Source: a virus
Taxonomy: Duplodnaviria > Heunggongvirae > Uroviricota > Caudoviricetes
Reading direction: 5' to 3' (one strand)
IMG/VR virus record: IMGVR_UViG_2529292882_000006
Span: 1-29,442 of that record
DNA: 29,442 bases
Shown here: in pieces, positions 5,651 through 5,804 of the stretch
Numbering within the stretch: the first letter of the stretch is position 1
Layout: every line of letters starts with the position of its first letter
Program-made: the position numbers and the translations under genes
Notes under the pieces: model-generated
Seen by the model: the letters and a program-made list of their open reading frames with translations, nothing else
What the model was told of the DNA's origin: nothing
Database searches by the model: none

Positions 5651-5726
5651 GCCGACTTAGCTCAGCAGGCAGAGCAACTGACTTGTAATCACCAGGTCAC
5701 CAGTTCGATTCCGGTAGTCGGCACCA
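5651..5726 (+). tRNA. tRNA-Thr-like (anticodon TGT), imperfect anticodon stem
   Basis: 76 nt including CCA. Perfect 7-bp acceptor stem GCCGACT/AGTCGGC, D-arm GCTC/GAGC, T-loop TTCGATT. Anticodon loop CTTGTAA, but the anticodon stem ACTGA/TCACC has only 3 Watson-Crick pairs, and the T-stem has one A-C mismatch. Confidence 0.55.
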
Positions 5727-5729
5727 TAT

Positions 5730-5804
5730 GCGGGTATCGTATAATGGCTATTACCTCAGCCTTCCAAGCTGATGATGCGGGTTCGATTCCCGCTACCCGC
5801 TCCA
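5730..5804 (+). tRNA. tRNA-Gly (anticodon TCC)
   Basis: 75 nt including CCA. Perfect acceptor stem GCGGGTA/TACCCGC, T-arm GCGGG-TTCGATT-CCCGC, anticodon stem TCAGC/GCTGA with loop CTTCCAA. From memory it is near-identical to the enterobacterial glyT tRNA. Confidence 0.85.

Follow-up and report, generated by a model that had tools for sequence, protein, structure and literature searches.

A pair of tRNA genes in the late operon of a lambdoid Escherichia coli prophage raises the question of what a phage tRNA with a partly unpaired anticodon stem is for: whether it escapes the nucleases by which rival elements destroy host tRNA, merely supplements the decoding of rare codons, or is a gene in decay. 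The prophage is IMG/VR virus record IMGVR_UViG_2529292882_000006, analysed from position 1 to 29,442, and "the window" refers to this whole 29,442-nt stretch. The two genes, and the positions at which the first departs from host thrU, are the following (substitutions in tRNA numbering).

5651..5726, + strand: tRNA-Thr(UGU), the thrU-derived CC allele (C42 C43), with encoded CCA (ARAGORN; Rfam RF00005 58.8 bits, E 1.7e-10)
5666..5670, + strand: two D-loop changes from thrU, U16C (5666) and U20C (5670), seen in the alignment to K-12 thrU
5692..5693, + strand: G42C and U43C in the 3' strand of the anticodon stem, unpairing C28.C42 and A27.C43 and turning the 3' CNG from CAG to CAC, from the alignment to thrU
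5727..5729, + strand: 3-nt spacer TAT between the tRNAs, kept in prophage Thr-Gly pairs
5730..5804, + strand: tRNA-Gly(UCC), glyT-derived, with encoded CCA (ARAGORN; Rfam RF00005 65.6 bits, E 2.4e-12)

We give an even chance to the reading that the Thr gene is a rare member of a class of prophage alleles that escapes Old-type Toprim nucleases, in which case it would serve as a cleavage-resistant replacement tRNA. The genes, their host ancestry, their late-operon position, and the allele class with its distribution are results of this analysis, and the Old and AriB determinants with which we compare them come from published experiments.

In the whole window ARAGORN calls these two tRNA genes and no others; they share the + strand, and each exceeds the RF00005 gathering score of 29 bits. 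The original prediction of a tRNA-Gly(TCC) and a tRNA-Thr(TGT) separated by 3 nt is borne out, and so is its description of a Thr anticodon stem, ACTGA/TCACC, with three Watson-Crick pairs; in the Rfam alignment the top two pairs of this stem are marked as non-standard, these being the A27.C43 and C28.C42 mismatches. Of the five pairs of an anticodon stem, the Gly tRNA has all 5 and the Thr tRNA falls short. The Thr gene had also been called divergent, but it is thrU with 4 substitutions: 72/76 positions are identical to K-12 thrU, and the only differences are T16C, T20C, G42C and T43C, of which C16 and C20 are frequent among prophage copies. The A-C mismatch noted in its T-stem is present (A52.C62) but is no mark of degeneration, since K-12 thrU has the same mismatch; being native to thrU, it is not decay. 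The window sequence is identical to that of contig JH768573.1 of NCBI assembly GCA_000261385.1, and the same prophage with the same CC allele occurs in four other assemblies or read sets, making five independent assemblies altogether, which rules out a sequencing error or an assembly artefact as the source of the allele. A minus-strand ORF of 52 aa (5689-5847) that overlaps the tRNAs was taken as spurious.

The rest of the Thr gene looks like that of a working tRNA. Checked against a list of invariant tRNA nucleotides, it keeps U8, A14, G18G19, U33, a purine at 37, G53-T54-T55-C56, A58 and the G15-C48 pair. The anticodon loop, CTTGTAA, has 7 nt and carries the UGU anticodon and A37. Threonyl-tRNA synthetase (ThrRS) has its identity elements in G1-C72, C2-G71, G35 and U36, all of which are intact here. 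As for the usual signs of a pseudogene, the gene is full length, its CCA is present, its invariant nucleotides are kept, and it scores 58.8 bits. The same Rfam model gives 73.8 bits to K-12 thrU and 61.5 bits to Thr21, the tRNA-Thr of phage 21, so the window gene scores close to a tRNA that is protective in experiments. By these measures the Thr gene does not appear to be a decaying pseudogene, and decay is made less likely.

Both tRNAs have host parents. The Gly tRNA is identical to glyT at 73/75 positions, the difference being one compensatory pair, C6:G67 to U6:A67, which is common to other prophage Gly copies; the U13.U22 mismatch in the D-stem of glyT is retained. On both sides of the pair and in its spacer, the sequence bears no relation to the host thrU-tyrU-glyT region, and tyrU together with a 116-nt host spacer is replaced by the TAT. 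The Thr-TAT-Gly unit is common to many prophages. Taken together, the sequences indicate that both genes descend from the host thrU-tyrU-glyT-thrT operon by an old capture that now circulates among phages, and not by insertion of host DNA. The Gly gene had been thought possibly a captured host gene or a recombination footprint: its host ancestry holds, but recent capture does not, given the phage flanks and the compensatory allele of its own. A check for exact host copies inside a host-DNA insertion came out negative for this pair, neither gene being an exact copy. An attP or a remnant of an integration site was rejected too, because neither tRNA is truncated and the pair is found within the late operon instead of at a prophage end.

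What sets the two stem substitutions apart is where they fall. P2 Old is the effector of P2-lambda interference, and it kills by cutting the host thrU tRNA-Thr(UGU) (Govande et al., NAR 2025, PMC12445682). It cuts after nt 28 and nt 40, at the paired CNG motifs C28-U29-G30 and C40-A41-G42, and resistance needs an altered CNG together with a shortened stem (U43A, with loss of the 27-43 pair), either change alone failing (PMC12445682). Host thrU gives no protection against Old, and phage tRNA-Thr(UGU), including tRNA-Thr21 of the lambdoid phage 21, does (PMC12445682). In the window allele, U43C removes the 27-43 pair, like U43A of the coliphage tRNA Thr6 and the G27.A43 of Thr21, and G42C turns the 3' CNG into CAC and leaves C28 unpaired, the Old Site 1 cut being the one that follows nt 28. 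The joint change of 42 and 43 in natural sequences matches the two-factor rule for Old. The tRNA-Thr(UGU) is also a prime target of the PARIS effector AriB, which cuts C40|A41 (Belukhina et al. 2025, PMC12409363). There, a U16C change in the D-loop significantly impairs cleavage, as demonstrated in tRNA-Lys only (PMC12409363), and the window Thr has C16 (5666). Its positions 36-41 read TAATCA as in thrU, with no substitution such as U39A or A41C within U36AAUC|A41. The Old and AriB papers together implicate 15 positions, and 3 of the 4 changes relative to thrU are among them (P = 0.026, for a position set that was chosen post hoc).

A mismatch at 27.43 and absence of the CNG are found together in three unrelated lineages of tRNA-Thr(UGU): T4-like (ACUCA/UGAGA), phage 21 (GUCGC/GCGAA) and PBECO4 (AUCCC/GGGAA). 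In the jumbo Escherichia phage PBECO4 (our locus L176, 51-126), the acceptor, D and T arms of this tRNA are those of thrU, and the mismatch is A27.A43. By its sequence, PBECO4 represents an independent, host-derived route to the loss of both the 27-43 pair and the CNG.

The CC allele belongs to a small class in which the pair of nucleotides at 42-43, GT in thrU, is either TC or CC. The class comprises about 30 IMG/VR contigs and, among complete E. coli genomes, 22/5,426; at least 8 prophage contexts are represented. We scanned IMG/VR exhaustively for a non-G at 42 and, separately, for G42 with a non-T at 43. In a thrU body, a non-G at 42 occurs on 10 contigs (9 TC, 1 CC), with C43 in 10/10, and G42 with a non-T at 43 does not occur at all. 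A looser IMG/VR pattern adds 17 chimeras and 3 T-loop variants. Among the 5,426 complete E. coli genomes there are no single mutants at 42 or 43; TC (T42 C43), the nearest allele to that of the window, is exact in 9 and carries one private change in 13. Of those 13 we inspected five, so that three strain groups were sampled with one or two members apiece, and assigned the rest to these groups by strain family. With all ten stem positions left free, 117/119 sampled prophage copies keep the host stem. Scans for 42-43 variants gave 0 matches in GTDB species-representative genomes and 1 in metagenomes (L133, a TC allele).

The class is not confined to one background. The TC and CC alleles occur on several D-loop backgrounds, and across the at least 8 cluster layouts flank identity is 75-90%, compared with 0-4 nt of difference between the Thr genes. 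For loci with the layout of the window, flank divergence is 12-18%, as against 3-4 differences per 76 nt of Thr and 0 per 75 nt of Gly. This conservation of the tRNAs relative to their flanks has P = 2e-5 to 1e-9 for both tRNAs together and P = 3e-4 to 0.03 for Thr alone. In the chimeras, nt 1-26 are those of phage 21 tRNA-Thr21 and nt 27-76 are of the thrU-TC type, and the gene lies between a tRNA-Asn and a tRNA-Gly. They are carried by L134 (2981-3056; E. coli O55:H7 RM12579) and by L180, L182 and 15 other IMG/VR contigs; PGAP gives them no annotation in the records inspected, ARAGORN makes no call, and Rfam scores them at 47-49 bits. T68C, which replaces the G5.U68 wobble with a G5-C68 pair, is present in 13/17 of them. 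The literature search found no paper describing thrU-derived TC or CC alleles; nuclease-resistant phage tRNA-Thr(UGU), with a lambdoid example, is already published (PMC12445682).

The reading that the Thr gene is an Old-escape allele starts from a host-derived Thr-TAT-Gly cassette in lambdoid late operons. G42C and U43C unpair the top two pairs of the anticodon stem and destroy the CNG of its 3' strand, and these two adjacent substitutions would supply both of the changes that Old resistance needs, the altered motif and the lost 27-43 pair. During lytic growth, an Old-type (possibly a PARIS AriB-type) Toprim nuclease would destroy the host tRNA, and the phage Thr would keep ACA codons readable. 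We infer the aminoacylation, decoding and cleavage resistance of the window Thr in this scheme. The original prediction had left open whether the Thr gene is an escape variant or a pseudogene. The evidence favours escape, because the stem-breaking changes hit the CNG and the 27-43 pair, occur only together, and define a class that persists in diverged contexts.

Several observations weigh against that reading. The 5'-strand CUG and the AriB recognition sequence U36AAUCA41 are unchanged from thrU, and the combination in the window, a retained 5' CUG with a 3' CAC and an unpaired C28, is not among the tRNAs tested in PMC12445682; all the resistant ones tested there have a stem of 4 bp, longer than the 3 bp seen here. 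By nearest-neighbour energies, the isolated anticodon stem-loop comes out at 0.0 kcal/mol (no fold), compared with -3.4 for thrU and -1.8 for a Thr6-like U43A, and U43C strengthens a competing 29-35/43-49 helix; such a 3-bp stem may impair function. The energies we use are cloverleaf-constrained, K-12 thrU itself giving a non-cloverleaf unconstrained minimum free energy (MFE) structure, so that the unconstrained MFE is uninformative. The exact window Thr is found in 0/5,426 complete E. coli genomes, which hold about 1,040 prophage thrU-like copies. The closest relatives by flank identity (89-97%) have an intact GT stem; the Thr of one of them, L019, differs from the window Thr at 42-43 only, and because the nearest relatives carry GT, CC would be recent in this lineage or gained by short-patch exchange. 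Some TC alleles are further damaged, by a G22A mismatch in the D-stem or, in the chimeras, to the point of going uncalled by ARAGORN and PGAP. The lack of single mutants may reflect one event followed by spread, the TC alleles sharing ancestry. The nuclease itself is scarce, P2 old being present in 17/5,426 complete genomes. One genome, E. coli VL7S7 (NZ_CM177009.1), combines a P2 old homologue (96.8% identical) with a TC-allele prophage; this co-occurrence is not significant (1 genome where 0.07 are expected, P = 0.067). Finally, the 7 kb that precede the window form an early region of Rac/Qin-like type (YdfE/RecE-like, DicB, YdaT and ParDE) in which no gam is seen, so this phage may not be one that triggers Old.

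The alternative that survives best is that both tRNAs are functional and only supplement rare codons for the late genes, G42C and U43C being tolerated as neutral or slightly deleterious; we think this unlikely. In its favour, about 98% of prophage copies keep the host stem exactly, and the GT stem of the nearest relatives of the window points the same way. Since host-identical thrU is unprotective against Old, the ancestral role of the cassette must also differ from Old resistance. Codon use in the 36 ORFs of the window adds to this: 20.6% of their Thr codons are ACA and 19.7% of their Gly codons are GGA, both above the K-12 shares, which are roughly 13% for ACA and roughly 11% for GGA. These shares are consistent with a baseline role of the cassette in supplying low-abundance tRNAs. 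The Gly gene is, in this respect, an ordinary intact copy that adds decoding for GGA and GGG. Its anticodon arm is that of glyT, and because it has CAG/CUG at 28-30 and 40-42 plus A37, tRNA-Gly(UCC) would by motif be a substrate of Old and not an escape variant. What codon supply leaves unexplained is why the sole recurrent variation in the Thr stem affects 42 and 43 jointly and never singly, and why the 27-43 pair and the CNG are lost in unrelated lineages of phage tRNA-Thr(UGU).

We consider it quite unlikely that the Thr gene is inactivated and decaying, with a 3-bp stem that cannot support aminoacylation or decoding, and that Gly alone is functional. The predicted failure of the stem-loop to fold fits such decay, a misfolded alternative helix being favoured by 2-3 kcal/mol, as do the fall in Rfam score from thrU to the window and the TC-class alleles with added stem damage or without an ARAGORN or PGAP call. 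However, outside 42-43 all of the thrU pairings, the invariant nucleotides and the CCA are kept, and the remaining changes are two D-loop transitions. The TC and CC alleles keep at least 95% identity between contexts with 12-25% divergence in the flanks, and among the chimeras it is the compensatory-type T68C that prevails. Thr21 is functional at a similar Rfam score (PMC12445682), and the energy model is a weak guide for molecules whose thrU parent does not reach a cloverleaf as its unconstrained MFE.

It is very improbable that TC and CC are footprints of a micro-conversion or crossover with a tRNA bearing a UCAUC or CGCCAGG 3' strand, and carry no selective meaning: intragenic recombination does occur (the O55:H7 allele changes from phage 21-type, up to nt 26, to thrU-TC-type from nt 27), other phages have a fully paired GAUGA/UCAUC tRNA-Thr(UGU) from which TC might stem by micro-conversion, and a neighbouring prophage tRNA-Ile has ...AATCGCCAGGTC... 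where the window has ...AATCACCAGGTC..., but the tract would be only about 2-5 nt long with thrU-identical sequence on both sides, and such an origin accounts neither for persistence in at least 8 contexts nor for the lack of similar footprints in the remainder of the gene. We also dropped the creation of a Dcm site (CCAGG) as a reason for CC, since the commoner TC allele has no such site.

Among known systems, the closest parallels to the reading of the Thr gene as an Old-escape allele are Thr6 and Thr21, which share with it the UGU anticodon, the lost 27-43 pair and an altered CNG at 40-42 (PMC12445682). They differ from thrU at 12 and 26 positions, respectively, whereas the window Thr has only two stem changes, and they keep a 4-bp stem by pair swaps (G30C/C40G, or C28U/G42A), in contrast to the two mismatches, 3 bp and intact 5' CUG of the window. 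For Thr6, a member of a coliphage library, the published description fits the T4-like phage sequence compared here, which may be the same tRNA. The T5 variants of tRNA-Lys, Thr and Asn by which PARIS AriB is neutralised (Burman et al. 2024, PMC11464382; PMC12409363) include the same target species; as in T5, the window substitutions lie near the C40|A41 cut site, and U16C is also present in T5 tRNA-Lys. Unlike in T5, the window keeps U36AAUCA41, and it is a temperate, host-derived element and not the tRNA array of a virulent phage.

The element around the pair is a mosaic lambdoid E. coli prophage, with a segment from Q to the lysis genes that resembles the Stx2e phage phiP27. The tRNA pair sits on the + strand in a Q-dependent late operon, between the Q/pR'-like element and the lysis genes, and the order of the region is DUF968, RusA, Q, a pR'-like and a tR'-like element, a small ORF, a methyltransferase, the tRNAs, a terminator-like hairpin, the lysis genes, terminase and structural genes. 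The features of this region are the following.

3037..3858, + strand: antiterminator Q gene, 273 aa (Pfam PF03589 Antiterm, E 7e-50)
3864..3891, + strand: candidate for a lambda-pR'-like late promoter, TTGATT-16 nt-TAAATT with a TG 5' of the -10, read off the sequence
3939..3958, + strand: tR'-like terminator hairpin directly 3' of the pR'-like element (terminator scan: stem of 7 bp, 5 of them GC, and a T-run after it)
4435..5481, + strand: DNA adenine methyltransferase gene directly 5' of the tRNAs (NCBIfam adenine-specific DNA methyltransferase, E 1e-32)
5561..5588, + strand: sigma-70-like promoter match TTGAAA-16 nt-TAATAT, about 63 nt 5' of tRNA-Thr (promoter scan)
5597..5647, + strand: leader hairpin GGUUCC...GGAACC, about 60 nt, ending 3 nt before the 5' end of tRNA-Thr (RNA fold)
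6072..6092, + strand: terminator-like hairpin, strong and followed by a T-run, separating the tRNAs from the lysis genes (terminator scan: stem of 8 bp, 5 of them GC, and after it TTTTTTTT)
6304..7670, + strand: lysis cassette of two holin-family genes and a muramidase (Pfam Phage_holin_8 and Phage_holin_3_7; NCBIfam holin-associated muramidase)

The original prediction had placed the pair downstream of Q. The position is right, but the gap is 1.8 kb and is filled by the small ORF and the methyltransferase, whose product is given as Pfam N6_N4_Mtase in the gene table of the source contig. An NCBIfam search gave Q no name and Pfam did; Q homologues in E. coli prophages carry an antitermination protein annotation. 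The pR'-like candidate scores under the threshold of the consensus scan, and we take it for a putative pR' by its place, lambda and phage 21 having pR' directly after Q. Both hexamers of the promoter match at 5561..5588 stay unchanged when diverged prophage loci are aligned, and the leader hairpin folds at -19.6 kcal/mol (z -2.2). The promoter match and the hairpin (5561-5647) are better conserved among diverged prophages than the sequence 5' of the promoter. This conservation suggests that the tRNAs may have their own promoter and may be expressed in lysogens.

Other elements lie nearby. Within the non-coding stretch of about 500 nt from tRNA-Gly to the holin gene, a sub-threshold Rfam match to the small RNA CyaR/RyeE (6028-6097, + strand; 31.3 bits, the gathering score being 47; E 0.0014) ends at the hairpin at 6072-6092. 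Between the lysis cassette and terminase, an ORF of 269 aa in the K88/F4 fimbrial subunit family (9248-10057, + strand; Pfam PF02432, E 6e-55) looks like a prophage-borne moron. On the other side, 5' of the DUF968-RusA-Q block, the gene table of the source contig lists a ParE toxin/ParD antitoxin pair with an HTH_3 regulator (257-1191, - strand). In the TC-allele prophage of E. coli TUM9757 (L137, 383-583), matches to isrK and to C4 antisense RNA with its a1b1 target lie just 3' of Q; the window has no isrK or C4 antisense RNA match at the gathering threshold.

The late slot that the pair occupies is that of other lambdoid and Stx phages: Q, a methylase, tRNAs, an optional toxin or moron, and the lysis genes. 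In phage 21 the tRNA genes also lie between Q/pR' and the lysis genes, in the order pR', tR', tRNA-Asn, tRNA-Thr, S21. In phiP27 tRNA-Ile and tRNA-Arg lie 5' of stx2e, in the same slot and on the same strand as the window pair, and the late-operon tRNA genes of 933W are ileZ-argN-argO. Late tRNAs of Stx and lambdoid phages are usually read as rare-codon supplements; the window pair differs in being derived from thrU and glyT, with nuclease-relevant substitutions in Thr. Relatives of the window prophage carry Ile, Arg, Lys or Asn genes beside Thr-Gly. The prophage tRNA-Lys(UUU) found there (L003, 5927-6003; L125, 504-580, - strand; L135, 2902-2978) is 77 nt long, with an Arg(UCU)-type body, a loop of CCUUUAA or ACUUUAA and 44 bits in Rfam; it has a C just 5' of the anticodon and a G as the first nucleotide 3' of the loop, and is without the UAAU element that AriB needs.

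To a broader and more tentative proposal we give somewhat less than even chances. Temperate lambdoid phages would turn a captured thrU resistant to Old and PARIS by a two-nucleotide unzipping of the stem (G42 to U or C, plus U43C), and single-mutant intermediates would be absent because neither change works alone. The late-operon tRNA cassettes (Ile, Arg, Lys, Asn, Thr, Gly) could then be modular counter-defence arrays against the Toprim tRNA nucleases of rival prophages and satellites (P2 Old, PARIS), and not primarily codon adaptors.

The mechanism of P2-lambda interference, a classic conflict between phages, was worked out as late as 2025, and the Old-resistant tRNAs known so far are heavily diverged phage molecules. 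If TC and CC do not resist Old, the locus amounts to a rare-codon tRNA cassette of the ordinary kind in which one copy is mildly damaged. If they do, they would represent the smallest natural route from a sensitive to a resistant tRNA, two adjacent bases on an otherwise host-identical molecule, and the GT, TC and CC alleles would be isogenic natural substrates for learning how Toprim nucleases read the anticodon stem. Annotators would have grounds for caution before writing off mismatched prophage tRNAs as pseudogenes, and temperate lambdoid prophages, the natural victims of Old, would be evolving escape alleles in the wild.

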